64,000 bases of DNA, taken from IMG/VR virus record IMGVR_UViG_3300022554_000002, positions 1 to 64,000 of that record. One strand, 5' to 3'. The stretch is from a virus. This document shows, in pieces, positions 9,619-64,000 of the stretch; the first letter of the stretch is position 1, and every line of letters begins with the position of its first letter. Below the pieces are notes generated by a model. The model saw nothing but the letters and a program-made list of their open reading frames with translations, made no database searches and was not told where the DNA came from. A program made the position numbers and the translations under genes.

Positions 9619-10686
9619 ATGTATCCGAAAACCACTGAAGAAGTCAACAAGAATGTCCATGAAAATAGGCTAGTAAAGGCTTATAAATCAAAAAATTATA
9701 ACTATCTTTTTGACAAGACTAATGGTAGTTTTGGACGATGGGGCAAGCATATGAATGACGACCCCATCTATGCTCCTGCACCAGAAATTGCAGACATTGA
9801 AATTTCTGTAAATGGTTGTCCTAACAGGTGTAAGTTTTGTTACAAGGACAACAATCCTGACAAGCCTTCCAACATGTCTCTTGAAACGTACAAAAAGGTT
9901 CTGGACATTTTTCCCCGTACTCTTACACAAGTAGCTTTGGGTATTACCGGAGTGCAGACTAATCCAGATTTTATCAAGATTTTGGAATATACCAGAAGTA
10001 AGGGTATTATTCCAAACTTCACACTTACTGGTATTGATTTGACTGACGAACTTGCTGAACAGATTTCCAAACTCGTTGGTGCAGTTGCAGTAAGTGTTCA
10101 AAAAGACAACAAGAACATTTGTTACAATACTGTTCAAAAGTTTTCTTCCTTGGGGCTTAAGCAGGTTAATATTCATATTCTTGCTTCTCTTGAAACCAAG
10201 GACTTCATTTATGAAGTTTTGAACGATATTAAGACAGATGAACGTCTTAAAGGGCTATATGCCATTGTTCTCCTTGGTGTTAAGCCCAAGGGTAGGGCAA
10301 AGGGTTATTTTAACTCCCTGCCTCAAAGTGACGTAAATGAAATTATTAACTACTGTCTTAATAATAATGTTACGTTTGGGTGCGATAGCTGTTCTGCCCC
10401 TAAATGCTCAAATGCTATTGATGCCTCACACTTGACTCTTAGGGAAAAGAATAATATTCAAACCAACATTGAACCCTGTGAGAGTGACCTGTTTTCCTGC
10501 TATGTTAATGTAAAAGGTGAGTTTTGGCATTGTTCCTTTGCTGAAAACGAGCCTAACATTAATACTGTAAGCCTTTTGGGTGTTAAAGACTTCGTTTCTG
10601 AGGTTTGGTACTCTGCTGCTGTGCAGAATTTCCGAGAACGGTTGTTGGCGAATAACAGGCATTGTCCTGTGCACAATATTGGATAG
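9619..10686 (+). CDS. radical SAM enzyme with C-terminal SPASM/Twitch-like Cys motifs
   Basis: CPNRCKFC (CxxxCxxC); C-terminal GCDSC, PCES..SCYVNVKGEFWHCSF, HCP. Confidence 0.9.
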   Translation: MYPKTTEEVNKNVHENRLVKAYKSKNYNYLFDKTNGSFGRWGKHMNDDPIYAPAPEIADIEISVNGCPNRCKFCYKDNNPDKPSNMSLETYKKVLDIFPRTLTQVALGITGVQTNPDFIKILEYTRSKGIIPNFTLTGIDLTDELAEQISKLVGAVAVSVQKDNKNICYNTVQKFSSLGLKQVNIHILASLETKDFIYEVLNDIKTDERLKGLYAIVLLGVKPKGRAKGYFNSLPQSDVNEIINYCLNNNVTFGCDSCSAPKCSNAIDASHLTLREKNNIQTNIEPCESDLFSCYVNVKGEFWHCSFAENEPNINTVSLLGVKDFVSEVWYSAAVQNFRERLLANNRHCPVHNIG

Positions 10687-12063
10687 ACAAATGAAAAACG
10701 TAAACTATTAGAAGCAAAATGTGGTTATGATTGTTATGTTGAAGAAACTGAGTTTTTAACTGAACAAGGCTTTAAAAAATTTAATGAAATTACTAAAGAT
10801 ATAAAATTAGCAACATTTAATACAAAGACTTTTAAAGTAGAATATCATAACTATATAGATAAATTTTCTGGCACATTTTCAGGAAACTTATATAATTTAT
10901 TTGGGAATCATATAAATCTTCTTGTAACCCCAAATCATAGATTATTTTATAGAAAGGTTGAACGAAAAACCGAAAAAACTTATGATTGGCAGTTAAACCA
11001 AATTTCTACTTTACCTGACACATTTGAAATTTTAAGAAATATCACACCTAAAACTAAAAATTATTGTGATAAACATTATTTTATTAACACAATTATTACA
11101 AAAAAAGATTACCTAAATCTTATGGGTTGGTATCTTTCTGATGGTACTATAGAGTTCCGAAATGGAAAAGTAAGAGCAATTAGAATTTCTCAAAAACTTG
11201 ATGGCAAACTCTATAACGAAATGAGAAAATTTTACCATAAATATAAAAACAAAATAAAAATTGGCTTGTATAAATATAAAAGAAAACCAAACAATTTAAA
11301 TCCTAATGAAATTGTTGAGGTTACTTTAGTTATTTTTGATAAAAATATTACTAATAAATTTTATTTAGATTGTAATTGCAGAGAAGATAAAAATATTCCT
11401 AGATGGGTTTTTAATTTGTCTAAAACTAGTTTTGATATACTATTAAAAGCATTAATGCTTGGGGATGGGACTTTAAGCAGACCTGATAATAGTGAAATTT
11501 ATTATAGTAAATATTTTAAATTAGCATCAAGTATACAAGAATTAGCTTTTTTATCAGGGTATGAAACAAGTCTATATGGGCCATATAGTTATAAACGCCC
11601 AAACTATCCTTATGACCATTTTATGTATCAAATACACATAAATAAGACAAGAAAGCAATTTAAAAAATTAATAAGAAATCATAATGTAAAAGTACAAAAT
11701 GTTGAAAATAAGAATATTGTTTGTTTTACCACTCCTACTGGAACACTTGTTACGAGATACAATGGACACATTGGATTACAAGGAAATAGTAAACACGCTT
11801 GTCACCTAGTTAGACTATGCCGTATGGCTGAAGAAATTCTACGTGATGGTGTGGTATTGGTCAAAAGACCAGATGCTCAAGAACTGCTCAATATTCGCCA
11901 AGGAAACGTGCCTTATGAGGCTATTGAAGAGATAGCCGATACCATGGATGCCAAACTAGAAGCTCTTTATAAAACGTGTACTTTAAGGGATAAACCAGAC
12001 CATAAGGGAATTCAAAAATTATATAAAGACATTTGTGAAGAATTTTATAGAATTAGATTTTAA
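10687..12063 (+). pseudogene. 5'-truncated phage nucleotidyltransferase (C-terminal half) carrying an intein; no in-frame start codon
   Basis: NEKRKLLEAKCGYD|intein|SKHACHLVRLCRMAEEIL..RPDAQELLNIRQG matches the GYD.KHA.HLVRL tail of Pol-beta-family phage NTases; frame opens right after the radical SAM TAG. Confidence 0.7.
10732..11787 (+). mobile_element. intein with LAGLIDADG endonuclease (352 aa)
   Basis: Starts Cys (CYVEETEFLT), block B VTPNHR, GWYLSDG and LMLGDG motifs, ends QGN followed by Ser. Confidence 0.85.
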
Positions 12064-12068
12064 AAACA

Positions 12069-12120
12069 CTTGACAAACAGTTTTTCGCCTGTATAATATT
12101 AAAAGGTTAGTTCAATTACC
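12069..12120 (+). repeat. 52-bp promoter/leader repeat copy 2 (TTGACA-N16-TATAAT at 12070-12097)
   Basis: 48/52 identical to 5836-5887. Confidence 0.85.
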
Positions 12121-12142
12121 TTGGCGCAACGGGAGAAAAACT

Positions 12143-12526
12143 ATGATAGACGAAAGCTCGATGTACTGGCTGACGCGGATGGACTACGTCTGCGACATAC
12201 TAAAGGGATTCGGTATTTTCGGACTAATGTTCGGATTCCTCTCATGGGTGCCGTTTTTTGTGACGATTGGAGAGAGCGAACACGAAGCTGTAGCCAAAGT
12301 CGTAAAATGGTTGTCGCCAATACTTCTTGTGATGGGTATGCTTTGCGTGCTTGGCCGAGCATTTACGCCAACCACCAAGGAACTTGCCACCATAAAGGTC
12401 GTTCCCGCCATTGTGAACAACGAAACACTGAAGACGGAGTGCAGCGAGTTCTATTCCTTGGCAAAATCATGGCTCAAAGAATCACTCGGAGTCAAAACGC
12501 AAAAAGAAGTGGTGGAAGACAAGTAG
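12143..12526 (+). CDS. two-TM membrane protein
   Basis: YWLTRMD..two hydrophobic segments, SD GGGAG, GC-richer than flanks. Confidence 0.7.
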   Translation: MIDESSMYWLTRMDYVCDILKGFGIFGLMFGFLSWVPFFVTIGESEHEAVAKVVKWLSPILLVMGMLCVLGRAFTPTTKELATIKVVPAIVNNETLKTECSEFYSLAKSWLKESLGVKTQKEVVEDK

Positions 12527-12546
12527 AATAACCTAAAAGGTGAGAA

Positions 12547-13092
12547 ATGAAGATTAGAAAAGGTTTTGTTAGCAATAGCAGTTCTAGTAGTTTCGTAGTA
12601 GATGGAACTAAGAGAACAGTACTAGATGTAGCATTCGACATGGTTCCTGCTCGTGATTGGAAAGAACGAGATGAGGAATTACAAAAGAAAATTTTGGCAA
12701 AAATTGACAGTCCTAATGCTGATGCACCTATTGCTTTTCACAGTTGTAATTTTGACACATTTATTATGAAAATTAATAATACTATTTTTGTTGAAACTTG
12801 TAACAATCATACTTGGGAAGATTTTATAAATTATCACCACGCAACTGATGAAGAATTAAAACTTATAGGCCAAAGTGATAGGGATTTTGATGGATTTAGA
12901 ATTAATGACCTTGATTATTTTTGGTGGCCTGAATATGAAATAGAGGCAAAAAGATTCTATCCTGATTATGATTTTTGTAAAAATTGTTTTTGTGACATTC
13001 TTCAACTAAGAACAGGACAAAAAATTTGTCCTAAGTGTAAAAAGGATAGAAGTGAGGTTGGAAGCTACTCAAAATCAACTAGTCACTATTAA
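12547..13092 (+). CDS. MKIRxGFVSNSSS-leader family protein with C-terminal zinc ribbon
   Basis: MKIRKGFVSNSSSSSF; CKNC..CPKC. Confidence 0.75.
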   Translation: MKIRKGFVSNSSSSSFVVDGTKRTVLDVAFDMVPARDWKERDEELQKKILAKIDSPNADAPIAFHSCNFDTFIMKINNTIFVETCNNHTWEDFINYHHATDEELKLIGQSDRDFDGFRINDLDYFWWPEYEIEAKRFYPDYDFCKNCFCDILQLRTGQKICPKCKKDRSEVGSYSKSTSHY

Positions 13093-13100
13093 TTTAGGTT

Positions 13101-13174
13101 CGGCGGGTAGCTCAGAGAAAGAGCATCAGCATACATGCTGAAGGCCGGGGGTTAAATTCCTTCCCCGCCGACCA
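13101..13174 (+). tRNA. atypical tRNA-like RNA (Val TAC-like, 6-nt anticodon loop)
   Basis: 7-bp acceptor, D, anticodon and T stems and CCA present; D-loop lacks GG, T-loop TTAAATT, anticodon loop ATACAT. Confidence 0.65.
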
Positions 13175-13181
13175 TTAAATT

Positions 13182-13613
13182 ATGAAACCATATCGAAAAT
13201 TTGGAACTTTATTTCAAATTCGATGGAAAGAGGCTTTAGGTCGTCCTGAATGCCCCTATCTTTATCGTTGGACAATCATTATTTTAGGTTTTTCTATAAG
13301 ATTACACCGTTGGATTAGGTCAGACGACAAAAGATATTTTCATGACCATTCATGTGATTTTTTGTCTATTATTCTAAAAGGAAAATATACAAATGTCACA
13401 CCAAATGGTATGTTTACAGTAAAAGCGGGGTCTTATTGGTGGTCTAAAGGAAGTAATAGGCACTATTTAGACATTCCAAAAGGTGGTGCTTGGACACTTC
13501 TGTTTTGTACAAGACCATATCGAAAATGGTATTTTTGGATTACTGAAACGCGAAAGTTACGTCCACTTGAATACTTTCATAGATATAAAATTCCCCCCTG
13601 TGACTGTCAGTAG
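13182..13613 (+). CDS. cupin-like hypothetical protein
   Basis: IRLHRW..HDH..FLSIILKGKY..H..WTL. Confidence 0.55.
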   Translation: MKPYRKFGTLFQIRWKEALGRPECPYLYRWTIIILGFSIRLHRWIRSDDKRYFHDHSCDFLSIILKGKYTNVTPNGMFTVKAGSYWWSKGSNRHYLDIPKGGAWTLLFCTRPYRKWYFWITETRKLRPLEYFHRYKIPPCDCQ

Positions 13614-13617
13614 AGAA

Positions 13618-14427
13618 TTATTTGGTTGTATAGTCTGGTGCAGCTAAAAGTTTTCTACGAATCATATCACTAACTGGTGATTGTTTATATAGTTTTGGCT
13701 CATTACAACTTGCTGTAGTACAAATAACAGGAAATTTATTAACAAAGTAATCTGACAAATAAACGTTGTTCTTTTTCCAAGGCTTCCAGAATTTAGTCAT
13801 TTGTTTAGCTTGCTGTGGAGGATCAATTCTAGCCTGCTCAAGACAATATGCACCTAATTCAGTACAGTATAAGGCTGGTACACCCTCAGACTCAAAAGCA
13901 AAATTATAATCTAGTCCCACTTGGCTGAGTGCAGCATCGACAATGGCCTGCGCTTCATCCATTGTTTGCCAAGGTCGAACACAACAAATGTAATCGTAAT
14001 GGAAGAAAATGTCAAGAAGATCATAGGTTGCAACCCCTTCTGACGTAGCATGTGTAATTGTTCTAATGAATGTGTTTGGAGAGAATTCGTTTTGTGAATT
14101 TTTATAATTTTCACTAATTGATTTTGGTTTTAGAATTTCACGTGATTCTTTGTCATAATATCCTTTTACTGGACCTGTGTAAACCATTAAGTGTTTAAAA
14201 GTACCTTTAATAGCACCACCACTAAGTGCATAACGTTTCTGGGTAGTCAGAAACATATCTCCCGGCTTGATTAATGTACTGAATAGTCGGTAATCATTAC
14301 CCACGGTTCGTGTCTCATCACGTCCATAAAGCATTGCTGGATAAGGAAATAGGGCTAATATATGTTTAGAAAACCATATATCACCACCAATACATGCAAT
14401 TTTCTTTTGTAACCAATTGAAAAACAT
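13618..14427 (-). CDS. YiiX/YaeF-like permuted papain-fold amidase (peptidase C92)
   Basis: H..VY, THATSEGV, ALSQVGLDYNF, LYCTEL; SD AAGGAG. Confidence 0.75.
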   Translation of the reverse strand: MFFNWLQKKIACIGGDIWFSKHILALFPYPAMLYGRDETRTVGNDYRLFSTLIKPGDMFLTTQKRYALSGGAIKGTFKHLMVYTGPVKGYYDKESREILKPKSISENYKNSQNEFSPNTFIRTITHATSEGVATYDLLDIFFHYDYICCVRPWQTMDEAQAIVDAALSQVGLDYNFAFESEGVPALYCTELGAYCLEQARIDPPQQAKQMTKFWKPWKKNNVYLSDYFVNKFPVICTTASCNEPKLYKQSPVSDMIRRKLLAAPDYTTK

Positions 14428-14467
14428 AATCTTAGTCCTCTCCTTTTATATATAATCGGAATTTTCC

Positions 14468-14496
14468 TTGACAAAACACCTATCTACTTGTATAAT
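14468..14496 (+). promoter_or_regulatory. sigma70-type promoter (N17)
   Basis: TTGACA-17-TATAAT. Confidence 0.8.
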
Positions 14497-14967
14497 ATGA
14501 GTATGAAAATTACAACAGATAATATTGACACTGCCTACTCTTTTGAAGAACTAAAAGAGTTTAAAATTGATGTTCTTGATTTTATTAGAAATGATGCAAC
14601 GAACTTATTTGAGTTTTGGATTCCTAAAGAGATTGTGGTACGTGAACCAACATTTGTTATTCCTACACGAGTTAAGCTATATAATACAAATTTGTATGAG
14701 GTTCATGAGTATATCGCTGATACCTATATAAGAAAATTTATGCCCTATGAAGAATTAAGAAACCAAAAAGGTTTTAATGGTTGTGGTAATTATCCTAGCG
14801 TTATAGTAATGGAACTTTATGAGTGTTTTGGTGATGATGGACACACACAATATAAACATTGTGGATTTGTCTTCACTACCGCAGAAACTATTTCGCTTAA
14901 GATGCAGGTAAACGAGAACAAATTCTGTTCTCCTTGGCAATTTGGATTTTGGAGCAAAAAAACATGA
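14488..14967 (+). CDS. hypothetical protein
   Basis: ORF; start probably ATG 14497 or 14503. Confidence 0.6.
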   Translation: MYNMSMKITTDNIDTAYSFEELKEFKIDVLDFIRNDATNLFEFWIPKEIVVREPTFVIPTRVKLYNTNLYEVHEYIADTYIRKFMPYEELRNQKGFNGCGNYPSVIVMELYECFGDDGHTQYKHCGFVFTTAETISLKMQVNENKFCSPWQFGFWSKKT

Positions 14968-15182
14968 ATAATTCTTCTCCACCCAATCCCCTCATTATAC
15001 TGTTATTCCTTATTGTTGGCCTTTCTCTTGGTTTTGGTATAGGTCATGATTTTGGTAGAAACGCTCACAAAAGAGAAGCAATTAGAAATGGTGTTGCACG
15101 TTGGGTAACTACTACCTATGAAGATGGCAGTGCAACTACTAAGTTTGAATGGATTGTTCCTGATGAGAAAAAAGAAAAATAA
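14964..15182 (+). CDS. small membrane protein
   Basis: N-terminal TM, EAIRNGVARW. Confidence 0.6.
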   Translation: MNNSSPPNPLIILLFLIVGLSLGFGIGHDFGRNAHKREAIRNGVARWVTTTYEDGSATTKFEWIVPDEKKEK

Positions 15183-15187
15183 ACTAC

Positions 15188-15216
15188 TTGACAAAAGCCC
15201 TACCTAGCCTTATAAT
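15188..15216 (+). promoter_or_regulatory. sigma70-type promoter (N17)
   Basis: TTGACA-17-TATAAT. Confidence 0.85.
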
Positions 15217-15235
15217 AAGTAAGTAAGGAGATAAT

Positions 15236-15565
15236 ATGGAAGTCACATTTAATGGTGGTCCTATGGCTGGAAAAATGATGAATATTCCATCGGAACCAGA
15301 CGCATTTGAGTTTCCTATTTACACTACCAATGGTGCATCTAATGCAGTAGCCCGATATGAACGAATTAAAAAAACACATCATTATGAATTTGTTGGTAAG
15401 GAAGAAAATAAAGAAGTAATTCCTGCTCCCAAACAAAAGTCCGTTATTATTAAACGTACACGAATTGTTTTACCAAAGGAAAAAACTGAAGACACTCCTA
15501 TAATAAAAGGTCATATGGAATATGATACAAAGAAAGGTCGTTACGTAGTTAAGAAAGATGAATAA
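15236..15565 (+). CDS. hypothetical protein
   Basis: SD AAGGAG; FNGGPMAG. Confidence 0.65.
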   Translation: MEVTFNGGPMAGKMMNIPSEPDAFEFPIYTTNGASNAVARYERIKKTHHYEFVGKEENKEVIPAPKQKSVIIKRTRIVLPKEKTEDTPIIKGHMEYDTKKGRYVVKKDE

Positions 15566-15566
15566 A

Positions 15567-15701
15567 ATGAAATATAAATGTCATATTTGTGATTATGAAG
15601 AAGAAGTTACGGGGAAAACTAATGATGGTCCAATAGATGATGATGTTTTAGCTCTTAAGCAATACACAAAAGAACATGCAAAGGAAGACTCCAATGGATG
15701 A
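15567..15701 (+). CDS. small hypothetical protein (44 aa, not in ORF track)
   Basis: MKYKCHICDYEEE..; coupled to both neighbours. Confidence 0.5.
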   Translation: MKYKCHICDYEEEVTGKTNDGPIDDDVLALKQYTKEHAKEDSNG

Positions 15702-16071
15702 ACCAATTCCAGAATACTTTAGAGAGAAAATGCAGCTTAATATTGATACTGAACTTAAGACGTTTGTTGAAACTATATTAGAACACTGCTCATTCTTAGC
15801 TGCATGTCAAAAATCAAATCCAACTGTAATAGATGATATTCAACAACAAATTATCAAAAAATTTAAAATCACTGACTCTGAGGTATCATTTACCTCCTTG
15901 GAAATGGAAGAACTTTTGGAACAAATTAATAGCGATTATATCTATAAAACAATTCTTGATTTAACAGACAAAGGTTATCTATCCATGGGTGTAGGCAAAA
16001 ATGGCGAAATGACTATTGAAGCAACAAAACAAGGAAAAGAGTATATGAAATTTTTTGAAAAAAGGACTTGA
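15694..16071 (+). CDS. hypothetical protein, possible winged-helix C-terminus
   Basis: ILDLTDKGYL..IEATKQGKEY. Confidence 0.55.
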   Translation: MDEPIPEYFREKMQLNIDTELKTFVETILEHCSFLAACQKSNPTVIDDIQQQIIKKFKITDSEVSFTSLEMEELLEQINSDYIYKTILDLTDKGYLSMGVGKNGEMTIEATKQGKEYMKFFEKRT

Positions 16072-16096
16072 CAAAGACAAATAATTCCTGTATAAT
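16068..16096 (+). promoter_or_regulatory. sigma70-type promoter (N17)
   Basis: TTGACA-17-TATAAT. Confidence 0.85.
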
Positions 16097-16119
16097 ATAT
16101 ATAGAAAGGAATTATTGCT

Positions 16120-17208: not shown

Positions 17209-17213
17209 ATTGC

Positions 17214-17241
17214 TTGACAAACTAGGGTTAAGCCTTATAAT
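17214..17241 (+). promoter_or_regulatory. sigma70-type promoter (N16)
   Basis: TTGACA-16-TATAAT. Confidence 0.85.
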
Positions 17242-17259
17242 ACTACTAAGGGAAAATGT

Positions 17260-18653: not shown

Positions 18654-19173
18654 TCGCCATTATTTCACCTTCTTGCCGCTCTCCATCAGAAGAGGGATTG
18701 TTAATAGCTTTTTGTAAACAGGTTTCATGTACTTCACAATCAAACTCATTACTCATTCGTCGTAGTTCTCCATCTTTAATGGGTTTTTGACAGAACCAAC
18801 AGGGGCCATTTTCTTCTTTTGACCAATCCTTAGTCTCTACTTCTTCAACATGCAAATTTACAATACTTCCATGATTACCCATGAAATAAACAACATTTTT
18901 ATTCTTAGAATTTAGTATATACATCCAAACAGCTTTTTTAATACATCCAAAGGATGATATATTAAAACAACCAAAAATACCATTGTGCGTCTGGTATAAT
19001 GAGCCGTTTTGGTCTATATCATCAGGAAAGGTATTATTAAACTCATATCCCATAATAATGTCAGGAAGTAAAATTGCTACTAATTCTTGTTTATAGTCAG
19101 CAAGCCTATTAATAGCTTTTTGAACCAATTCTTTTGTTAATTTCTTATCAGATACAGTCTCTTGTAAAGCCAT
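18625..19173 (-). CDS. hypothetical protein with C-terminal Cys/His cluster
   Basis: CWFC..EFDCEVHETC. Confidence 0.6.
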   Translation of the reverse strand: MALQETVSDKKLTKELVQKAINRLADYKQELVAILLPDIIMGYEFNNTFPDDIDQNGSLYQTHNGIFGCFNISSFGCIKKAVWMYILNSKNKNVVYFMGNHGSIVNLHVEEVETKDWSKEENGPCWFCQKPIKDGELRRMSNEFDCEVHETCLQKAINNPSSDGERQEGEIMANEFGIQKKE

Positions 19174-21569
19174 TAGGTTTTCGCTCCAATCCCAATAAGA
19201 TAATATCTACAATCAGAAGGTACAAAATCTTTGTAATATCTGAATGGGTCAATTACAACTGAGCCAGAAGGGAATTTGAATTCTTTCCAAATTTCATGCT
19301 GAGTGGCAATAAAGAAAACGTGGGGAGTATGAACAGTTAGTTTATACTCTGGTGTAACTAGAGGATCATAAATGACATGGTTAATATTGCGTTCTAATAG
19401 TAGATTACTAAGTAACATAGCAGGACTACCTGTTGTTAGCCCAATATTGGCTTTAAATGATTTGCCAAGAATTACAATAGGCATATCTTTAGTAGATACT
19501 TTTTTAGTAAAATTCTCAATTGCGTCCGCAAGCTTGTCTACTTGTGCTTCTCGTACAAGCATGAGATACCGGCAGAAATCATAGTCCATATTTAATTCTT
19601 TTGCCAACCAAGACATAGCAATGTTGTCCCTTGGGTGGCAAGAATTACAAACTAAACCACCTTGAGTTACATAATTGTTTACATCCTCTACTTCTATATT
19701 GTAAACCTTACCAGAAAAAGGAATTTTTGTTGTTTTCATTATTTTGTAATAAGTGTAATTTTCATCTATAGGAATTCTAGCAAGAGGACGAATCTTTTTT
19801 TGAATTTCTTTTTTATTAACAAAATTAACAATTTTTGTTAATTTAACAGCGTCTTCATAATTACGAATATTTACCTGATAAACAGGATTTGGATATTTTT
19901 TACCTATATTATTTTGTACTCGCATGTAACTTCTAATATTAAGTTTATTTAGTAAAAACTGAACTGCAATCATTAATTCCTTAGAAATTGTTGTATATGT
20001 AAATCCTTTATAATTACAATGACCATCCCCCCGAAAAAGACCCTGTAAAATTAATTTTGCATATTCTGTTGGTCCATAAAGAACCCACATTGGAATTTTC
20101 TTATTTTTAGCACCTGAACCAAACTCTGCTTTAATATATTGAGCTAATTTAGCTTTATAAAAACAAATATCTGTAGCAGTATTATGGCTCTTCTTAACTT
20201 TTCGTGTAATATATGCATCATCATACATACGTTTAATAATATTTTCAATATCATTCATATATTCTACTTCTTTAGAATTAAGAGTAAACTGAACACCATC
20301 AATGTGTCCACGAGTACCCTTAATACAACCTTCTGCTAAATAATAACCAGCAAGAGAAAGTAAATCTTGTATATTCCAACTTAACTCCGGTGCGGGCAGT
20401 GTTTGTTCTTTAATATTAGGAAATGCAATATAATAAAAAGACTTATCTAAACCAAATAATTGTTCAGAGGGTACTTGACACATTTCGCTGAGTTTTGTTT
20501 TTTCTTTTGGTCCATTAATACTATATTTAGAATAGACTTTATGATTTGGTGTTAATGTAATATTTTTATTTCCCATTAAATCGAACCGAATTAAATCTCC
20601 TGAAAAGTCTCTACTAAATAAATTAGTTACTTTATGTAATAATCCATCACCACCAAGTACTTTATCACCAACGTTAATTGTATTAATATTTACTAAACCA
20701 TTTTCTGTATAAATTTTTTGAGTTTCATCCAAACAACCACCATCGCCCATTCCAGCCGTTAAATATTTGGTAGAAATTAAACGCTCTGTTGCCATTTTAA
20801 GAGCATTTGTGACATCATCCACATTGGCATTTGGAATCTGTTCACATATCTCCATGAGGTAATTAACATAGTCAATTTTCATTGTAATAAATGTATTATA
20901 TGATACTTTGGTCAATTCAGCAGATTCAATACTCATTTCTGCAAATCGTATTGGATTACCTTTAACTGGTCCCTCTTTATAACTATAAATTGTATCATAT
21001 AACTCTTTTAGTTTTTGACATGCCCAATCATCATATTTACCAATGAGCACAAATTCAGGATGATAGAAATCCCAAACTACAGTACCCATTGCAATAAAGA
21101 ATGGGTTATAAACCACTTTAATATTTGAATTTGTAATTTCTGGTAATACATGCCGTCGAATTGTGAAAGGTAAAACGGTGCTGATAATTGCAACAACTTT
21201 AGGCTTGTCAATTTGACACGAATTTAGTTTTTTGATACAATCGACTAGATATGAATAATCAAAGTTAGCAACAGTATCAGGCACTCGTGTTACACCTTCA
21301 TATTCCTTACCATGTGGTGTCTGAATGGCAAGAAAGATAATATCTGAATGATCGACTACTTCTTGCATTGATCCAAACTTAATATCAGATTTTGCAAGCA
21401 TTTCTTGAAAGCCATTAGGCTCTTTGTTTGGTCCAGCTTCGATAGCTGTAAAGTTCTTAGACATGAGTTCAGGAACTACATCATAGCCCATTACAGAGTG
21501 GCCTTTAGCTGCAATAGCAACAGCTACAGGCTTGCCAAGCTTACCGAGTCCAATCATTCCTACGCGCAT
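19173..21569 (-). CDS. UDP-glucose/GDP-mannose dehydrogenase family enzyme containing an intein
   Basis: Rossmann GLGKLG, NPFFIAMG, ELTKVSYNTF, spliced catalytic GG|SCHPRD, LGKSFK. Confidence 0.9.
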   Translation of the reverse strand: MRVGMIGLGKLGKPVAVAIAAKGHSVMGYDVVPELMSKNFTAIEAGPNKEPNGFQEMLAKSDIKFGSMQEVVDHSDIIFLAIQTPHGKEYEGVTRVPDTVANFDYSYLVDCIKKLNSCQIDKPKVVAIISTVLPFTIRRHVLPEITNSNIKVVYNPFFIAMGTVVWDFYHPEFVLIGKYDDWACQKLKELYDTIYSYKEGPVKGNPIRFAEMSIESAELTKVSYNTFITMKIDYVNYLMEICEQIPNANVDDVTNALKMATERLISTKYLTAGMGDGGCLDETQKIYTENGLVNINTINVGDKVLGGDGLLHKVTNLFSRDFSGDLIRFDLMGNKNITLTPNHKVYSKYSINGPKEKTKLSEMCQVPSEQLFGLDKSFYYIAFPNIKEQTLPAPELSWNIQDLLSLAGYYLAEGCIKGTRGHIDGVQFTLNSKEVEYMNDIENIIKRMYDDAYITRKVKKSHNTATDICFYKAKLAQYIKAEFGSGAKNKKIPMWVLYGPTEYAKLILQGLFRGDGHCNYKGFTYTTISKELMIAVQFLLNKLNIRSYMRVQNNIGKKYPNPVYQVNIRNYEDAVKLTKIVNFVNKKEIQKKIRPLARIPIDENYTYYKIMKTTKIPFSGKVYNIEVEDVNNYVTQGGLVCNSCHPRDNIAMSWLAKELNMDYDFCRYLMLVREAQVDKLADAIENFTKKVSTKDMPIVILGKSFKANIGLTTGSPAMLLSNLLLERNINHVIYDPLVTPEYKLTVHTPHVFFIATQHEIWKEFKFPSGSVVIDPFRYYKDFVPSDCRYYLIGIGAKT
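19644..20735 (-). mobile_element. intein with LAGLIDADG endonuclease (364 aa)
   Basis: CLDETQKI start, LTPNHKV, GYYLAEG, GLFRGDG, VYNIEV, ends VCN followed by Ser. Confidence 0.9.
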
Positions 21570-21570
21570 C

Positions 21571-21769
21571 TTATTTTTCTCCCCAGTATGCATTTAATCT
21601 AAATTCTTCATTTTTTGAAGCATATCGTTTCAACCAATATAAACTTTTTCGTGCTTTTGAACGTGTAAAAAATACAAATTGTGGTAACCATGATCCTCCA
21701 CAATATGAGGCAGCACGATTGGCTTTAATTGAAGCTAAAGAAGAAATGGAGAAAAATCATGAAAATTAG
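21571..21769. pseudogene. two startless, divergent gene 3' ends at right inversion breakpoint
   Basis: Minus: CGGSWLPQ..RLNAYWGEK* (21700-21571); plus: QYEAARLALIEAKEEMEKNHEN* (21701-21769); no promoter or start codon between. Confidence 0.6.
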
Positions 21770-22043
21770 ACAGGGTTTTGTCAGTAATTCCAGCAGTGCT
21801 AGTTTTGTCATTGACAAGACTAAACTTAATGGGCTACAAATCATAGCAATTAAAAACCACATTAAAACCGCTATTGAATTGGGTATAGCGCAAGATTACT
21901 TTGATGAAGGTGATGCTTGGGGAATTATAGATAATGACGATGGTACTATGATATTATCAACTAGTATGACTAATTTTGATATGGAAGAATTTTTAGAGAA
22001 AATTGATGCAATTGATGCAATTATTTCTAAAGATTATGACTAA
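21759..22043 (+). CDS. MKIRxGFVSNSSS-leader family protein
   Basis: MKIRQGFVSNSSSASF, SD GGAG. Confidence 0.75.
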   Translation: MKIRQGFVSNSSSASFVIDKTKLNGLQIIAIKNHIKTAIELGIAQDYFDEGDAWGIIDNDDGTMILSTSMTNFDMEEFLEKIDAIDAIISKDYD

Positions 22044-56114: not shown

Positions 56115-56570
56115 CTATTCTACTCCAAAGTTATCACCGTAAATGATCTTCTTAACAGCCTCATGGTTCATTTTAAACTCTTGGGCCTTGGATTTGTAAA
56201 AATTCATTAATGCTTCTGCCTCTGCTCTCATTTCCAAAGCTGTAATCACATCTGGGTCTTTGGAAACATATTGACCACGAGCAGTTGCAGTATCTTTTTG
56301 ATCACCTAGACAAGAACCAGCTTTGTCTAAAAATGCAATTGAACGAGATAAGTCAAGTGTCGCGTCTATCTTGCCAAAAAGTTCCATAGTAAAGGAGTAA
56401 TAAAGACTCGCCACTCCAAAACCATTAGAACTCCATTCAAGATATTGCGGAGCACTGGCAGGTGTTACAGCCGTTAAATTTCCACACTGCATTAACGGCT
56501 GTAACAACGCTACCTTACTCTTCAACTCGTCCAAACGCAGTCTATAAGCATTCAATTTTTCATGTAACAT
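56115..56570 (-). CDS. hypothetical helical protein, UvsY-like by size and position
   Basis: Between SSB and RecA-like; YVSKDPDV. Confidence 0.45.
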   Translation of the reverse strand: MLHEKLNAYRLRLDELKSKVALLQPLMQCGNLTAVTPASAPQYLEWSSNGFGVASLYYSFTMELFGKIDATLDLSRSIAFLDKAGSCLGDQKDTATARGQYVSKDPDVITALEMRAEAEALMNFYKSKAQEFKMNHEAVKKIIYGDNFGVE

Positions 56571-56573
56571 TTT

Positions 56574-57581: not shown

Positions 57582-57629
57582 TTTACTTCTCCTTATTTAA
57601 ACTTGCGCAACACGCGCATCCTTACTTAT

Positions 57630-57657
57630 ATTATAAAGGTACCACGCTATCTGTCAA
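57630..57657 (-). promoter_or_regulatory. sigma70-type promoter (N16)
   Basis: TTGACA-16-TATAAT on minus strand; TGA stop of pol lies in the -35 box. Confidence 0.85.
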
Positions 57658-60329
57658 GTAGGTATTTTCCAACTTTCATTCTCTTTCGTAACCACCTTAC
57701 AAGAACCTAATTTATATCCAAGCTTAATCTCAAACTCCATAGGAATTGTTAGTCCAACAGGGTGTAACATGATACTTTCCATTGTATTAAACAACTGTAT
57801 GGCATGATCTTTTCTAACTTCACCAACAATTGAGTCATGTACGAATGATACATATTTTGCATCAATGTTTAATTCTTTACATTTATTACGAATTTTCAAA
57901 GCACTAAGCAGTGTATAGTCACTGGCCTGTGCTTGAATAATAAAATTCACACCTTGTCGTTCAGCTTCACCACGTTCATGTTTATTTTCAGCAATTAAAT
58001 TGGCTAAACGACGCTTACGACCAAAATATGTAATAAATGTATTATTATTAGCAAGAGCAATTTTAACCTGCTCCTGTTGCCAACGTTTTACTCCCTTATA
58101 TGTATTCCAATATACATCATAAATGTGTTTTGCATCAGCTTCTTGTATGTTATTTTCCTTAGCAAAATTGCCCCACCACTTACCATAACACAAAGAGAAG
58201 TTTGCAGTCTTACCATTCTGACGTTCTTCTTTTGTAACTGCCTTCTTAGCATTGAAATTAGGATCATTGTCCATCTGATCTACTAACTCAGGATGGTAAA
58301 TGCGTACCGCCAACATAGCATGTGGGTCTAACCCGTTCATAAATGCTTTGTACAGATTTTCATCACGGGAATATTCTGCAATTAGTCGTAATTCTGCCTG
58401 ACTATAATCAACTTCAAATAAATAATAATCATCCGGTCTGGAACATGAATATAAATCACGAACCACAACCCCAATATCCTTCAATAAAGGGGTACCACGT
58501 GTTAAATTCTGTAAATTAGGGTTAGATGAAGATAATCTACCTGTTTCTGTACCATTGGGGTGAAAACTTGAGTGCACTTTGCCATCACTATAAATATTCT
58601 TAGTAATTCCTTCAAAATATGTACTTAAAGCCTTGGCATACTTACGACGAGTTAATACTTTCTTTGGAACAGGATGTAATGCTGCTAATTTTTCCAATAC
58701 TTCTTCAGTTACAGCCGGATCATTCTTCTCTGTTCGATCTAATATTGGTAAATTGGCATATTCGTATAAATACTTACTCAACTGAATGTTAGAAGTGAAT
58801 TTAACTGGTGCAGGTACATCTCCATCCTTTGGAATCATGGTATACTGTTCTAAATCTTTATCAATATCAACAATTGCCTGCTTTAATCTTGTTATACATT
58901 CTTGTCGATATTTTTCATCAATATAAAAACCTGTTTCCTCAACATCTAACAACATCCAACTAACAGGCATAAGGAAATTGACCAATAAATTATGCATATT
59001 CTCTTTTATAACTTCTGGCATCAACTTCAAGTAAACCTGTAGAGTAGCATCGGCGTCTGTACCAGCATACTTCACCAAAACATCTGGCGGAATAATGGCA
59101 AATGAATCAGATTTCTTCTCAGTTTTCTTTAAACCACAACTTGGTAAGGAATCTTCATAATTACCATATTCAGTGTACCGTTTAGCCAAATCCTTCAAAC
59201 CATGAATACCAACTCGTTCATCTAAACAGTAACTAGCCATCATAGTATCAATTACTGAACCACGATCAAACTCAAATCCAGCTTTGTGTAATAATTTAAC
59301 ATCGAACTTGAAATTATGAAAAATCTTTATCTGGCTTGATGATTTGAACAATTTGGCTAATCGTTCTTTTACATCTGTACCAACCCACTTATAAGTTGGC
59401 ATATTCAAACGATTCTCACTAACGAATGCCTTTATATCATCAGCATATGCTTTTCGTTTTGTCTGTAAATAATTCCTACAAAATTCATAATAAGCATCAT
59501 CACCGACACACCAAGGCAAAACATATGAATAATTGGGCTTACAACTAAAGGCAATCATGATAATAAAATCGTCAATGAAATCCAACCCAGATGTTTCAAT
59601 ATCTATTGACAACCTTGTGCTTTGCTCAAACTCCTTCATCATAGCGTCAAACTTCTCATAAGTATCAACGTAAGTTACATTACTATAAGAGTTTGTAGCG
59701 TTACCACTAAGAACAGACTTGATAACTTTCAATGCATAAACTGTCTTTTCAGTATTACGAATATCTCTAAGAACATATGAAGGATGGAAACATGGTATAA
59801 TCTTTACGTTGGGATAATCAGGAGACTCCATAACAGTGCCGTTAAGTTTAGTAATACCACTTTTCTTACCAGTAATACGTTTTAATGCTGTGGCACCCAA
59901 CGGAACTATAATCTTTGGGTTAGCATCCTTAATGGCTCTTTCTACAATATGGAAACAGGCTTTTTCTTCATCACTTGTTGCTTCTCTATTGTTTGGAGGA
60001 CGACACTGAACCACATTAGCTATGGAACAAACATTTCGATCAATACCTGCCATTTGTAATAATTCATCGAACTTCTGACCTGTTCTACCAATTAAAGGCT
60101 CAGTTCCAAACTGATCCTCTGTTTCTTCAGGAGCATCTGAAATAAACAATATGTCACAATTTGGAATAATCTTTGGTGGAACCACATGACAACGATTAAC
60201 TGCAAGAGGACAACGAGTACAACCACGAAGATCAAAAGTCAACCAATCAATATCATCAACTGGTCGATCATCTTTCTTTTTCTTCTTCGTTTTAGGTGCT
60301 AAATCTGGTAAATCCATATTACTCGTCAT
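57654..60329 (-). CDS. family A DNA polymerase with N-terminal family-4 uracil-DNA glycosylase-like domain
   Basis: UDG: CTRC..NVVQCRPPNNR..C..HPSYVLR; exo: DIETSG, HNFKFD, YAGTD; pol: TGRLSSSNPNLQN, DYSQAELR, K..NF..YG, VHDS. Confidence 0.92.
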   Translation of the reverse strand: MTSNMDLPDLAPKTKKKKKDDRPVDDIDWLTFDLRGCTRCPLAVNRCHVVPPKIIPNCDILFISDAPEETEDQFGTEPLIGRTGQKFDELLQMAGIDRNVCSIANVVQCRPPNNREATSDEEKACFHIVERAIKDANPKIIVPLGATALKRITGKKSGITKLNGTVMESPDYPNVKIIPCFHPSYVLRDIRNTEKTVYALKVIKSVLSGNATNSYSNVTYVDTYEKFDAMMKEFEQSTRLSIDIETSGLDFIDDFIIMIAFSCKPNYSYVLPWCVGDDAYYEFCRNYLQTKRKAYADDIKAFVSENRLNMPTYKWVGTDVKERLAKLFKSSSQIKIFHNFKFDVKLLHKAGFEFDRGSVIDTMMASYCLDERVGIHGLKDLAKRYTEYGNYEDSLPSCGLKKTEKKSDSFAIIPPDVLVKYAGTDADATLQVYLKLMPEVIKENMHNLLVNFLMPVSWMLLDVEETGFYIDEKYRQECITRLKQAIVDIDKDLEQYTMIPKDGDVPAPVKFTSNIQLSKYLYEYANLPILDRTEKNDPAVTEEVLEKLAALHPVPKKVLTRRKYAKALSTYFEGITKNIYSDGKVHSSFHPNGTETGRLSSSNPNLQNLTRGTPLLKDIGVVVRDLYSCSRPDDYYLFEVDYSQAELRLIAEYSRDENLYKAFMNGLDPHAMLAVRIYHPELVDQMDNDPNFNAKKAVTKEERQNGKTANFSLCYGKWWGNFAKENNIQEADAKHIYDVYWNTYKGVKRWQQEQVKIALANNNTFITYFGRKRRLANLIAENKHERGEAERQGVNFIIQAQASDYTLLSALKIRNKCKELNIDAKYVSFVHDSIVGEVRKDHAIQLFNTMESIMLHPVGLTIPMEFEIKLGYKLGSCKVVTKENESWKIPT

Positions 60330-60528
60330 ATTTCTTTCGTATTGCTTCTAATGTATTAAGCATAGCCGTAGCACACTCAATTGCAATTTCACCTTCCTTA
60401 CAAATTGTTATTCCTTCCCTGTTCTTACCAAAAGATTCAAGTACAGCAGCGTAGTCCACAACAGTTTTAGTCTGTTGTAAAAATGAATGCACAGACAAAT
60501 CAAAAAGAATTTATTTCTTACTATTCAT
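60319..60528 (-). pseudogene. small gene with premature TAA at codon 6
   Basis: AAGGAG + MNSKK*ILFDLSV..RKKYDE*; 63 open codons follow the stop and end coupled to the pol start. Confidence 0.55.
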
Positions 60529-60538
60529 GTTTTTCTCC

Positions 60539-61099
60539 TTATTTCCTATTTATCCTAAGATATGTAATTCGTTCTTTCTTCAATTCAAGACCTGTGTATT
60601 TGTTCAACCTGTTAAAAATCTGATAAAACCAAACTGAGGCTTGTTGCGTAGTACATTTTGGACCAACAATCTGTCGAATCTCTTCCAGCAAAGTGTGCAT
60701 TGCCTTATTGTTACTCTTTAGCATTAATTCTGCAACCTTGTACGTCTTTGTCTCTCGTGATTGCATAGCACACTTAGCCAACTCAACATGAACGTCCAAA
60801 TCGCTAGTTTGATTATCCATTGCTGTAACCTTTAAAATACTCTCATTTAGTGCCTTATCCTTACCATATGTCAAACAATGTTTGGTAAGCTTCTGACAAT
60901 GACCCAACTTAGACAAATAACAAGCATTACACCCCTCATCCTCATTCAGATAGCTGCCAAAACATTCATTCTTAATGGAAGACATTCGTTTGATTAAAGC
61001 AAAAGAGTATAACTCATTTAAATCAGTATTTGCAATATAAGGAATACCCTGTTCCTTAATCAACTTCTCTTTTACTTCCCTGCTAATGTCTTCATGCAT
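60539..61099 (-). CDS. hypothetical protein
   Basis: Probable start MHED; CFGSY..CNAC..C. Confidence 0.6.
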   Translation of the reverse strand: MHEDISREVKEKLIKEQGIPYIANTDLNELYSFALIKRMSSIKNECFGSYLNEDEGCNACYLSKLGHCQKLTKHCLTYGKDKALNESILKVTAMDNQTSDLDVHVELAKCAMQSRETKTYKVAELMLKSNNKAMHTLLEEIRQIVGPKCTTQQASVWFYQIFNRLNKYTGLELKKERITYLRINRK

Positions 61100-61295
61100 C
61101 TGGTTTCTTGCCTTTTTTATAATCGGTACAATAGAATCCAGTACCTCTAAAGACAACTCCCAGACCACCAGTAATACATCGTTCCACGGTCTGTTTAGTA
61201 CACTTAGGACAAGTCTTTTCAGGCTTAACCCTCATAGATTGAGTCCTGTCAAACTCATGCCCACAAGAAGAACATTTATAATGATAAGTAACCAT
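61092..61295 (-). CDS. FmdB-family zinc-ribbon protein
   Basis: YHYKCSSCGHEF..CPKC..FRGTGFYCTDY. Confidence 0.85.
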   Translation of the reverse strand: MVTYHYKCSSCGHEFDRTQSMRVKPEKTCPKCTKQTVERCITGGLGVVFRGTGFYCTDYKKGKKPDA

Positions 61296-61627
61296 TACTT
61301 CTTAAAATCACCTGTGATAATCTTGCTCTGTCCCTGTTTCGCAGGAACCGAACCTTCAGGAACCAACAAACGTGGCTTGCTCAATTCCTCAATCTGCTTC
61401 TTACAAGCTTCTTTATGAGCCTCTTCGTATTTGTCCATTGCTTCCTCAACCGTTGCAGCTTCGATTAAGAAATTAATAGGAACCACTCTGCCATTAATGG
61501 CAAAAGGCCCAACACCAATATGGGCAGATTTGGTAACCTTACCCTCAAGGTCCAATAGCTCCTTAAGAACTACTGTCTTTCCGTCTTCCTCATTCACAAA
61601 CTGACGTTCTCGGACCTCTACAATCAT
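61295..61627 (-). CDS. hypothetical protein
   Basis: SD AGGAG. Confidence 0.6.
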   Translation of the reverse strand: MIVEVRERQFVNEEDGKTVVLKELLDLEGKVTKSAHIGVGPFAINGRVVPINFLIEAATVEEAMDKYEEAHKEACKKQIEELSKPRLLVPEGSVPAKQGQSKIITGDFKK

Positions 61628-61628
61628 T

Positions 61629-61838
61629 TTAATTCTCCTTGAAATCAAATGCACTATACTTACACTCATAATCAACATCATCAATTGTTACAAGCTCAAC
61701 TTCAGCATCACTATCTCGTAACATCCAAAACTCTAAGTTATCCTCACAATACTTTTCAGTTGGTTGTAAAATTGCATAACCTCTGCAATCCATACCAATA
61801 TAATTCAACTTTCTACCCCTAGTTGTAATAACGATCAT
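61629..61838 (-). CDS. hypothetical protein
   Basis: ORF coupled to primase. Confidence 0.5.
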   Translation of the reverse strand: MIVITTRGRKLNYIGMDCRGYAILQPTEKYCEDNLEFWMLRDSDAEVELVTIDDVDYECKYSAFDFKEN

Positions 61839-62831
61839 TTAAGCACCTAAACTTGGTAACTGTAAAACCTGTCCACCATACTTCACTGATGCATCCAAAT
61901 GTTTAAAAAGCTCTTCCTTCGGATATTCGTCAGGATCACCAAAAGGCAATTTGCAAATATAAGTGGGAAAAACAGAAGCAACGATATTAGCTTGCTTCTC
62001 CAGTTCCTCAATCGGCACGTCAGCATCATATAATAATATTACCTTTTCAAATCTACCCTGACTAGCCATCCATGTCACATGCTGCTTTTTAATAGTACTT
62101 CCATACGTAGCAATAGCATTCGGCCCAACATACAGAGCATCGAATACTCCTTCTGTTATTATAAGGGTTGGATAGCGTTTGGCAAGCGAAAAATTGAACG
62201 GAATTTTGGCAGAACCAACTCCATGCTCTTTTTCATCTGGATTTAGGACTTTTTTGTAAGCTTTACCAGTAATATCTCTGGCAATCCAATAAATAGGCTC
62301 CCCATTATCGTTTACGTCACAAATAATGAGTCTATTTCGGTATCTACCATGCCAACAAACCCCAATTCGATGCCTATGTACTAAATCTGGTGTCAAAGTC
62401 AGCAAAGATTTCCGATTTTTGATGTGTGGAACTGCTTTATACCCTAAAAACTCGTAACTCTCTGGTAATTCAATGGGATTTGTACTAAAATCAATCAATT
62501 TTTGGTCATTTTGCTTGAAATCTGCCAATGATTGACTAATATTATAAGGTTTTGCATCAATTTTACCTTGTAACATTAGGACAATATCGTTAAAAGGTAA
62601 TTTTGTTATGTATTTTATGGTGTCAAAGAACGTTTTTGCTTGGTGACAACGAAAACAGCTTACCATTTTTAGTGATAAGCTGACTCCGCAATGCTTTTCT
62701 TTACCACAAAAAGGGCAAACGTCAAGAATGTACTCAGTCTTACCACCAACCCACTCAGGAATGTAGCCCTGACCCTGTAAAAACTCAATCATGTCAAAGC
62801 TATCTATCAAATAATCAATGTTAATAGACAC
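61839..62831 (-). CDS. DNA primase (Zn finger + TOPRIM)
   Basis: CPFCG..CFRC, ITEGVFDA, YDAD, GDPDE. Confidence 0.85.
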   Translation of the reverse strand: MSINIDYLIDSFDMIEFLQGQGYIPEWVGGKTEYILDVCPFCGKEKHCGVSLSLKMVSCFRCHQAKTFFDTIKYITKLPFNDIVLMLQGKIDAKPYNISQSLADFKQNDQKLIDFSTNPIELPESYEFLGYKAVPHIKNRKSLLTLTPDLVHRHRIGVCWHGRYRNRLIICDVNDNGEPIYWIARDITGKAYKKVLNPDEKEHGVGSAKIPFNFSLAKRYPTLIITEGVFDALYVGPNAIATYGSTIKKQHVTWMASQGRFEKVILLYDADVPIEELEKQANIVASVFPTYICKLPFGDPDEYPKEELFKHLDASVKYGGQVLQLPSLGA

Positions 62832-62850
62832 CTACCACACCCTATTCAAA

Positions 62851-63258
62851 TTAACTAGCTCTAGTTCCAGTATACAGCTTGGGCTTCTCTTTAATATTAA
62901 ACTTTTCCTTCAACTTCTCAATAGCTTCCTGCACTTCCTCAAAATCAATTTCCTGTTCATCAAGAGAATCACCATCGGAACTAACGTCTGCAACAATGTA
63001 CCCCACTAAATCATCACCACCATCAATAACCAAGTATTTAATATTCTTAATACCAAAATCATAATTATACAAAAATTCATGCCAAGTATCCTCTACACCA
63101 TATTTTTCTAAATTCTTAATAACATAATCACTACCATGCTCTTCAATAAACTTTCGTTGCTCATCCTCAGACTCAGGCAATACCTTACTTGCCTTGAATC
63201 CAAAGACCACAAACGAACTACTAGAACTGTTACTCACGAAACCATTACGAATCTTCAT
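62851..63258 (-). CDS. MKIRxGFVSNSSS-leader family protein
   Basis: MKIRNGFVSNSSSSSF, SD AAGGAG. Confidence 0.75.
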   Translation of the reverse strand: MKIRNGFVSNSSSSSFVVFGFKASKVLPESEDEQRKFIEEHGSDYVIKNLEKYGVEDTWHEFLYNYDFGIKNIKYLVIDGGDDLVGYIVADVSSDGDSLDEQEIDFEEVQEAIEKLKEKFNIKEKPKLYTGTRAS

Positions 63259-63270
63259 AGCTATTCTCCT

Positions 63271-63579
63271 TTATCCATCATACCAAGATTCTTCATATGT
63301 TTTACAGGCAGGAACAGGTTTGTCTTTAAATACTTCCTTTAACTTCTCTTCAACACTCTTCTTAAACATGGCACCTGTTTCATCATCTTTAACAGAAGAC
63401 CATGACCGACCAATATAGGTAGCATAATCCTGTTGATGGATTTCTAAACCTTCAATATAAGCATCGCCATACTTATCCTGTGGTAAAAATGATAAGTCTG
63501 CATCTTCATCCAAATGAATACCAAAAATACAAAAACTACTGGAACTACTGTTACTGACAAAACCATTACGAATCTTCAT
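63271..63579 (-). CDS. MKIRxGFVSNSSS-leader family protein
   Basis: MKIRNGFVSNSSSSSF, SD AAGGAG. Confidence 0.75.
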   Translation of the reverse strand: MKIRNGFVSNSSSSSFCIFGIHLDEDADLSFLPQDKYGDAYIEGLEIHQQDYATYIGRSWSSVKDDETGAMFKKSVEEKLKEVFKDKPVPACKTYEESWYDG

Positions 63580-63592
63580 TTCTGTTCTCCTT

Positions 63593-64000
63593 TTAGGTAT
63601 ATGTACTATCTACGTAAACGCTATCACCACCAATTTCTTTTAAACTCTCAACAAAGTTTTTAAAAGCACACTCTAAACTAAATTTAGAAATAACTTCAGC
63701 GTCTCTCCACGCACGACAACCACACTCAGGACAATATTTAATATCTCCTTCTGGTAATTTATGGTCACAACCCCTTACTTTTGGTTGTTTTTCATTATAC
63801 TTCCACGCAACAGTATGAAAAGAGTTTTTATAACTATCTCCTGTGGTAATCATCATAAGAACTAGCTTCTCACCACAAAATGTAAATTCCTGCTCACAAG
63901 CAGAAACAGCTAGACGTTCTTCCTCAGTACAAGTAGCCTTTGCTGCTTCTAATGTTTTCTTTTTTACAATAACTACAAAGGAACTTGAGCTACTGTTACT
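63593..64000 (-). CDS. MKIRxGFVSNSSS-leader family protein, 5' truncated by window edge
   Basis: Frame from 64000 reads SNSSSSSFVVIVKKE.. continuous into ORF 63593-63856; CPECG ribbon. Confidence 0.75.
   Translation of the reverse strand, partial: SNSSSSSFVVIVKKKTLEAAKATCTEEERLAVSACEQEFTFCGEKLVLMMITTGDSYKNSFHTVAWKYNEKQPKVRGCDHKLPEGDIKYCPECGCRAWRDAEVISKFSLECAFKNFVESLKEIGGDSVYVDSTYT

Follow-up and report, generated by a model that had tools for sequence, protein, structure and literature searches.

A serine-rich N-terminal tag on many unrelated phage proteins is linked to a radical-SAM enzyme

The radical-SAM gene and the tagged open reading frames

The IMG/VR record IMGVR_UViG_3300022554_000002 is a complete phage genome of 194,473 bp with direct terminal repeats and a G+C content of 35%. 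The DNA probably stems from a sediment metagenome, the only sequencing run listed as containing it in full; no RNA run is listed. The phage is far from every cultured phage, its DNA polymerase being at most 28% identical to any in the cultured-phage collection. The window, meaning the whole stretch of DNA analysed here, comprises the first 64 kb of this genome. It contains a gene for a radical S-adenosylmethionine (SAM) enzyme, which is present as a single copy in the complete genome, and five open reading frames (ORFs) that share a serine-rich N-terminal peptide of 16 residues, here called the tag. An earlier note, made from the DNA letters alone, had listed these five copies. The ORF listing and a six-frame motif scan recover all of them, four complete and one truncated, and add a sixth outside the window. 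All six start with MK[IT]RxGFVSNSSSxSF. The tagged proteins are small, acidic and otherwise unrelated, save for one probable pair described below.

The enzyme gene (9619-10686, + strand) encodes a 355-aa protein of the phrog_7293 family (E 4.7e-77) with a Pfam Radical_SAM match (E 2.9e-10). The CX3CX2C motif of the superfamily is formed by C67, C71 and C74, and these three cysteines are invariant in 38 homologs. Towards the C-terminus, C258, C287 and C305 are kept in all 38 homologs and C349 in 34 of them. These four conserved cysteines would be enough for one auxiliary cluster, which fits a twitch-like enzyme rather than a full SPASM protein with about seven cysteines and two auxiliary 4Fe-4S clusters. 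Pfam recognises the Radical_SAM core only, with no SPASM match at E values up to 1. The earlier description of the enzyme as SPASM-like is only partly borne out.

The AlphaFold2 model of the enzyme (predicted local distance difference test, pLDDT, of 94) has a short N-terminal ß domain with strands between residues 13 and 41. The closest solved fold is SuiB (Z 24.3, root-mean-square deviation (rmsd) 3.9, 308 aligned residues), followed by SkfB (Z 22.7, rmsd 3.5, 287 aligned). The aligned part begins at model residue 15-17 in both cases and so takes in the N-terminal domain, which is placed inside the N-terminal regions of SuiB and SkfB. The model matches many other radical-SAM structures as well. 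CteB (Z 19.6) and the anaerobic sulfatase-maturating enzyme anSME (Z 19.2, rmsd 2.9, 267 aligned) are aligned only from about residue 53. At the sequence level, likeness to SkfB is marginal (E 0.002), and NCBIfam yields weak matches to peptide maturases including MftC and WgkB, all far below the cut-offs. The spacing of the first two cysteines varies in the wider family: it is 3 residues in 37 of 101 unique homologs, 6-8 in 29, and up to about 17 in others. The enzyme of phage RB16, for example, has CX7CX2C. A cluster loop of such variable length is uncommon in the superfamily.

The tagged copy closest to the enzyme lies 1.86 kb downstream on the same strand, matching the 1.9 kb given in the earlier note for a radical-SAM assignment that Pfam and PHROGs both support. 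It encodes 181 aa (12547-13092, +), with a body isoelectric point (pI) of 5.2, seven cysteines, a CxxC zinc-ribbon-like C-terminus and a weak match to zf-RING_4 (E 0.004). The second copy (21759-22043, +; 94 aa, body pI 4.05) belongs to a body family with 24 members in other phage loci. Just downstream of it is a gene for a family 2 glycosyltransferase (GT2; Pfam Glycos_transf_2, E 1.4e-15). Three further copies form a tandem array on the - strand at the end of the window. The first of the trio (63593-64000 in the window, continuing to 64024 in the genome) encodes 143 aa with eight cysteines; the window edge cuts off its first residues, and its start in the genome reads MKTRQGFVSNSSSSSF. This start overlaps the stop of a gene with a von Willebrand factor A (vWA) domain at genome positions 64021-64686 (-). 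The middle copy (63271-63579, -; 102 aa, body pI 4.5) matches phrog_7397 over residues 1-101 (E 2.9e-4). The last (62851-63258, -; 135 aa, body pI 4.5) has 22 homologs that share the invariant tag, an ADVSSD-like loop and a C-terminal GTR motif. The sixth copy, at genome positions 187455-187916 (+), encodes 153 aa. A Shine-Dalgarno-like purine run precedes every copy.

The six tags are 90% identical at the amino-acid level and 70% at the nucleotide level, with serine codons alternating between AGY and TCN and arginine codons between AGA and CGT. This confirms the near-invariant peptide with synonymous codon variation noted earlier and indicates selection on the peptide. The 10-residue core pattern occurs four times in the window and in none of 200 shuffles. 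From residue 23 onward, the tagged bodies of this genome fall into five BLAST components. The mutual dissimilarity claimed before is thus largely upheld, except that the 135-aa and 102-aa proteins fall into the same component. They align colinearly by BLASTP (E 2e-4, tag included) and are probably distant relatives.

The tag family and its association with the enzyme

A scan of IMG/VR for GFVSNSS[ST] matched 491 stretches, of which 73 loci were analysed. In these loci and the present genome, 307 of 331 occurrences have a methionine precisely five positions ahead of G6, and a 20-kb locus holds up to 11 copies. A logo of the 485 unique tagged proteins from all loci gives the consensus MK.R.GFVSNSS[ST].SF at the exact N-terminus. 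After M1, it retains K2 in 480 proteins, R4 in 483, G6 in 455, F7 in 467, V8 in 458, S9 in 483, N10, S11 and S12 in 485 each, S15 in 471 and F16 in 469. This means that R4, N10, S11 and S12 are essentially invariant. A profile of 128 tagged sequences, in which only the tag is conserved, matched 27,071 clusters (50% identity) among 1.84 billion representatives, and nearly all matches begin at residue 1. The few proteins seen with two tags look like adjacent genes read through.

Behind the tag, the proteins are highly diverse. Their median length is 131 aa (5th-95th percentile 91-200, with an overall span of 90-280 aa), their bodies have a median pI of 4.5, and 90% of the bodies lie below pI 5.5. 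The 477 unique tagged proteins of at least 80 aa form 128 BLAST components, 91 of them singletons. In hhalign profile-profile comparisons of the 16 largest body clusters, only two pairs are related. None of the 128 representatives matched Pfam. Searches of Pfam and NCBIfam with tagged proteins gave nothing significant, and PHROGs gave only phrog_7397 (function unknown), which 67 of the 128 representatives match, mainly via the tag. With 27,071 clusters and no Pfam match among 128 diverse representatives, the tagged proteins make up a very large block of unannotated phage proteins.

Of the 73 tag-anchored loci, 45 have an enzyme homolog (36-55% identity) within 10 kb; in nearly all cases its gene shares the strand and lies 0.3-3 kb upstream. 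For the converse view, 82 loci were found from the enzyme alone and tags were sought within 10 kb. Strict tags are present in 70 of these loci. They form arrays of up to 13, invariably share the strand of the enzyme gene and often lie just 5-50 nt away from it. Seven of the other 12 loci carry variant tags (e.g. ...SLVSNSS, ...GHVSNSS, ...DFVSNSS or ...TFVSNSS), which brings the total with strict or variant tags to 77 of 82. The check on co-occurrence proposed in the earlier note thus comes out clearly in favour of an association. The enzyme and the tagged ORFs are the only recurrent families in the 82 loci, the next untagged family occurring in 10 of them, so shared synteny fails as an explanation of the link.

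At the level of whole contigs, eight of the 25 tag contigs lacking the enzyme within 10 kb carry it elsewhere. These eight include all three contigs that are at least 90% complete, and the 17 without the enzyme are 5-88% complete. On prokaryotic contigs from metagenome-assembled genomes (MAGs), tags lie near 8 of 11 full-length enzyme homologs. They are absent from all 30 loci in which more distant radical-SAM genes gave only a partial match (22-39% identity). Taken together, co-localisation and co-occurrence in these genomes strongly support a tie between the tag and the radical-SAM enzyme. Tags are also more alike within a locus than on permutation (similarity 0.812 versus 0.778, 13 standard deviations), and lineage-specific substitutions are common to all copies of a locus. 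Co-evolution with a single reader could explain this likeness, but so could gene conversion.

Enzyme homologs with 35-37% identity are found in 172 cultured records, including RB16, RB43, Lw1, KP15, KP27, Matisse, Miller and GAP161. In RB16, where RB16p156 is the enzyme, two tagged genes (RB16p106 and RB16p111) flank the vWA-like gene RB16p109 (RB16 67920-70139) at a distance of about 20 kb from the enzyme gene. The RB16p111 family is found in 175 records with almost the same tally of host genera as the enzyme. These records probably represent a single clade, so we count the agreement as one event. A tblastn search of cultured phages with the 135-aa tagged protein gave no match. The presence of both parts in phages of E. 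coli and Klebsiella (RB16, RB43, Lw1, KP15, KP27) makes a functional link between them testable.

Several further features of these loci were observed. A 313-aa ORF (11122-12063, +) without a Pfam match separates the radical-SAM gene from the first tagged gene of the window. Two LAGLIDADG-like motifs (YLSDGT and LMLGDGT) were recognised by eye, and homologs occur in six other tag loci; this ORF probably encodes a mobile homing endonuclease that has come between enzyme and tag. A 269-aa ORF (13618-14427, -) matches permuted papain-like amidases (Peptidase_C92, E 2.2e-6). It is 0.5 kb from the first tagged gene, on its downstream side and in the opposite orientation, and has no homolog in the other tag loci. 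The UDP-glucose/GDP-mannose dehydrogenase gene of the window (19173-21593, -) is interrupted by an intein, which carries a LAGLIDADG endonuclease (Pfam LAGLIDADG_3, E 2.5e-13; Intein_splicing, E 3.4e-7). Elsewhere, a 793-kb MAG contig binned as an Asgard archaeon (Promethearchaeota; L162) carries a full-length enzyme homolog (39% identity) with one adjacent tagged ORF on the opposite strand, which could be a provirus or a binning artefact. At three loci (L142, L144 and L148), TAG is the sole interruption in tagged ORFs, which end at TAA. The likely explanation is that these phages, which also carry the tag system, translate TAG as an amino acid.

Proposed role of the tag and alternative explanations

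The pairing of tag and enzyme across hundreds of phages points to a widespread system in which one enzyme would mark many different proteins. We consider it probable, with considerable room for doubt, that a single radical-SAM enzyme recognises and probably modifies the N-terminal tag on many unrelated phage proteins. The earlier note had proposed such recognition or modification. Co-localisation and co-occurrence support the tie between tag and enzyme that underlies this proposal; physical recognition, the modification itself, its site and its chemistry are what we infer from the association of the genes. In the proposed mechanism, an enzyme with a RiPP-maturase-like fold (RiPP, ribosomally synthesised and post-translationally modified peptide) and a single auxiliary Fe-S cluster would recognise the 16-residue tag and install a covalent change, for which the invariant S9-N10-S11-S12 core is the likeliest site. 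About ten flexible residues at the start of the protein would enter the enzyme, and the following SSSF[VI][VI] strand would stay anchored in the protein's own fold. Candidate chemistries are the conversion of serine to formylglycine, a C-C or ether cross-link, or epimerisation.

This mechanism draws on the structural prediction of the 135-aa protein and its 22 homologs. The AlphaFold2 model is a confident alpha/beta fold (pLDDT 86) in which residues 1-10 are disordered and residues 13-22, where the tag ends, make up one strand of the sheet. Foldseek retrieved nothing from the PDB for this model at E values up to 0.001. In a wide VIA-align search the best hit (Z 4.4) covered a helical segment only, so that no known fold was recognised, and the ESM Atlas returned only unnamed viral clusters for this protein. 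The ESM Atlas model of the 181-aa copy is poor (pLDDT 0.49) and yielded nothing informative. A complex prediction that combined the enzyme with the 135-aa protein, SAM and two 4Fe-4S clusters reached 0.16 where the mark is 0.32, which speaks neither for nor against their pairing.

A number of observations weigh against enzymatic modification of the tag. The whole case rests on gene association. The enzyme sequence has no Pfam match to PqqD/RRE (the latter being the RiPP recognition element) or SPASM, and the tagged proteins are far larger than RiPP precursors. In the one modelled body, residues 13-22 are a core strand, which makes the tag more than a leader that could be detached. The earlier term 'leader' fits only loosely, since the tagged proteins are 90-280 aa long rather than short precursors and part of the tag region is built into the modelled fold. 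Five of the 82 enzyme loci have no tag within 10 kb, and two fairly complete tag-bearing contigs (79% and 88%) have no enzyme. In the present genome, only one of the six copies is close to the enzyme: the other five are 11-177 kb away, and three of these have the opposite orientation. Finally, tag variants show no clean covariation with conserved enzyme residues: Q182, Q104 and G179 vary in variant-tag lineages, but they do so in canonical-tag lineages as well.

Alternatively, the tag may be an unmodified docking or assembly handle, or a serine-rich loop that binds a small molecule made by the enzyme. As a handle, its strand could pair with a hub protein, with the enzyme acting as a mere scaffold, or with other tagged proteins. 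On both views the genes would be inherited together although the tag is no substrate. The 135-aa model suits this idea, with residues 13-22 as a strand and 1-10 free. An N-terminal strand followed by a Ser/Thr-rich loop also resembles the phosphate-binding loops of nucleotide- and flavin-binding folds. Moreover, vWA domains are protein-interaction domains, and vWA genes border the arrays here, in RB16 and in about five other loci. Yet a common ligand-binding fold is unlikely for 128 BLAST components with no shared profile, vWA genes occur in only a few loci, and the sole recurrent partner of the tag is a catalytic radical-SAM enzyme with its cysteine motifs intact in all 38 homologs. We therefore regard a docking or ligand-binding role as unlikely, while still the most serious competitor to modification. 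The vWA genes in question (genome 64021-64686 (-), RB16, L064, L066, L079, L091 and L126) may encode a second, occasional partner of the tag system. A general vWA link was rejected, as it is confined to this genome, RB16 and about five loci.

That the tag is a sorting signal for capsid targeting, export or injection, and that the enzyme is linked to it for some other reason, appears improbable. The internal proteins of T4 show the same pattern, in that small, polymorphic proteins from gene arrays carry a conserved N-terminal peptide, their capsid-targeting sequence. The first residues of the tag, MK.R.GF, resemble a type IV prepilin leader. Against this, the tag contains no Glu and so lacks the Leu/Ile-x-Glu site of the prohead protease. 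It also lacks the hydrophobic segment and the Glu+5 that mark prepilins, and 30 of 485 tags have another residue in place of G6. While a sorting signal evolves together with the scaffold of its own lineage, the tag is kept across very divergent phages (enzyme identity 36-55%), and no tie between arrays and head genes was found in the loci examined. Both specific forms of this idea were discarded: a T4-type capsid-targeting sequence for want of Glu at any conserved tag position in the 485 proteins, and a type IV prepilin leader for the polar VSNSSSSS that follows G-F and the missing Glu+5. A separate 66-aa ORF at locus L118 (9034-9234, +), about 1 kb downstream of the radical-SAM gene there, does have a typical type IV pilin-like leader and hydrophobic segment; it starts MKRKGFTLIELMIVVAIVG, and its first residues resemble the tag.

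Least probable of all, with hardly any weight in our judgement, is that the tag serves as a glycosylation acceptor for a phage glycan cluster through the sequon N10-S11-S12. This possibility was raised in the earlier note as O-glycosylation by the glycosyltransferase cluster. The copy at 21759-22043 does lie directly upstream of the GT2 gene, and N-S-S fits the N-x-S/T sequon. However, homologs of the window's GT2 and UDP-galactopyranose mutase are found in none of the other 157 tag or enzyme loci searched, which leaves the proposal unsupported, and no glycosyltransferase family is recurrent beside the enzyme. A glycyl-radical protein with its activase, marked by an invariant Gly in R-V-x-G-[FYW], was considered as well, given the R-x-G-F of the tag. 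It was dropped because G6 is not invariant: the 30 exceptions among the 485 tags have T, S, D, C, K or another residue, and such substitutions are carried by every copy in whole lineages.

We thus favour modification of the tag by the radical-SAM enzyme. More tentatively, and with slightly more doubt than confidence, we suggest that one covalent mark on a universal tag, carried by dozens of unrelated effectors per genome and in more than 27,000 clusters, could be a general maturation or activation mark. The acidity and small size of the bodies, their arrays and their fast turnover lead us to speculate that they are host-takeover or counter-defence effectors. Full-text literature searches found no description of the tag or of what this enzyme does. 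If tag modification is borne out, it would be a protein post-translational modification of an undescribed kind, and radical-SAM chemistry of the RiPP type would reach from small peptides to whole folded proteins. The tag would then offer a sequence-only handle on a large class of probable host-takeover or counter-defence proteins, and the pair of enzyme and tag a compact tool for protein engineering.

Comparison with known systems

The T4 internal proteins resemble the tagged proteins in their conserved N-terminal peptide of about 10-16 residues, in being polymorphic small proteins encoded in hyperplastic arrays, and in their occurrence in large phages. In contrast to them, the phage tag lacks the prohead-protease motif, is kept across very distant phages, and is linked to a radical-SAM enzyme instead of head genes.

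Another parallel is anSME/AtsB. These radical-SAM enzymes act on whole folded proteins from several families, where they modify a Ser or Cys within a short conserved motif close to the N-terminus. Here, the conversion of serine to formylglycine would suit a Ser-rich target. Unlike the substrates of anSME, however, the logo of the 485 tagged proteins lacks the sulfatase motif (C/S)-x-(P/A)-x-R, and the tagged bodies are not sulfatases (none of the 128 representatives has any Pfam match). The enzymes differ too: anSME has two auxiliary clusters, whereas the phage enzyme has four conserved C-terminal cysteines, and the fold alignment with anSME leaves out the N-terminal domain.

RiPPs of the prochlorosin type share the overall logic of one enzyme with many co-encoded substrates, which have a conserved N-terminal peptide and a hypervariable remainder, and some of their substrate genes are likewise scattered in the genome. 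The enzyme is a lanthionine synthetase there and a radical-SAM protein here. Moreover, the presumed phage substrates are protein-sized, and what varies in them is a folded body in place of the modified core.

The best structural matches are SuiB/StrB, which makes the Lys-Trp cross-link of streptide, and SkfB, which forms the thioether of the sporulation killing factor; both are radical-SAM RiPP maturases. As in these systems, the phage enzyme combines the SuiB/SkfB fold with adjacent genes for presumed substrates, same-strand tags being present in 77 of 82 loci, and these substrates share a conserved N-terminal peptide. SkfB also has a single auxiliary cluster, as the phage enzyme appears to have. 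Other traits of RiPP systems are missing: no protease or transporter family recurs in the 82 enzyme loci, and in place of short precursors there are proteins with a median of 131 aa, one of which is predicted to fold with a pLDDT of 86. Whereas the SuiB and SkfB precursors are one short peptide per system, the presumed phage substrates are acidic proteins of 90-280 aa from up to 13 unrelated families per locus. In further contrast to SuiB and SkfB, the conserved peptide occupies the very start of the phage proteins and is probably what the enzyme acts on.

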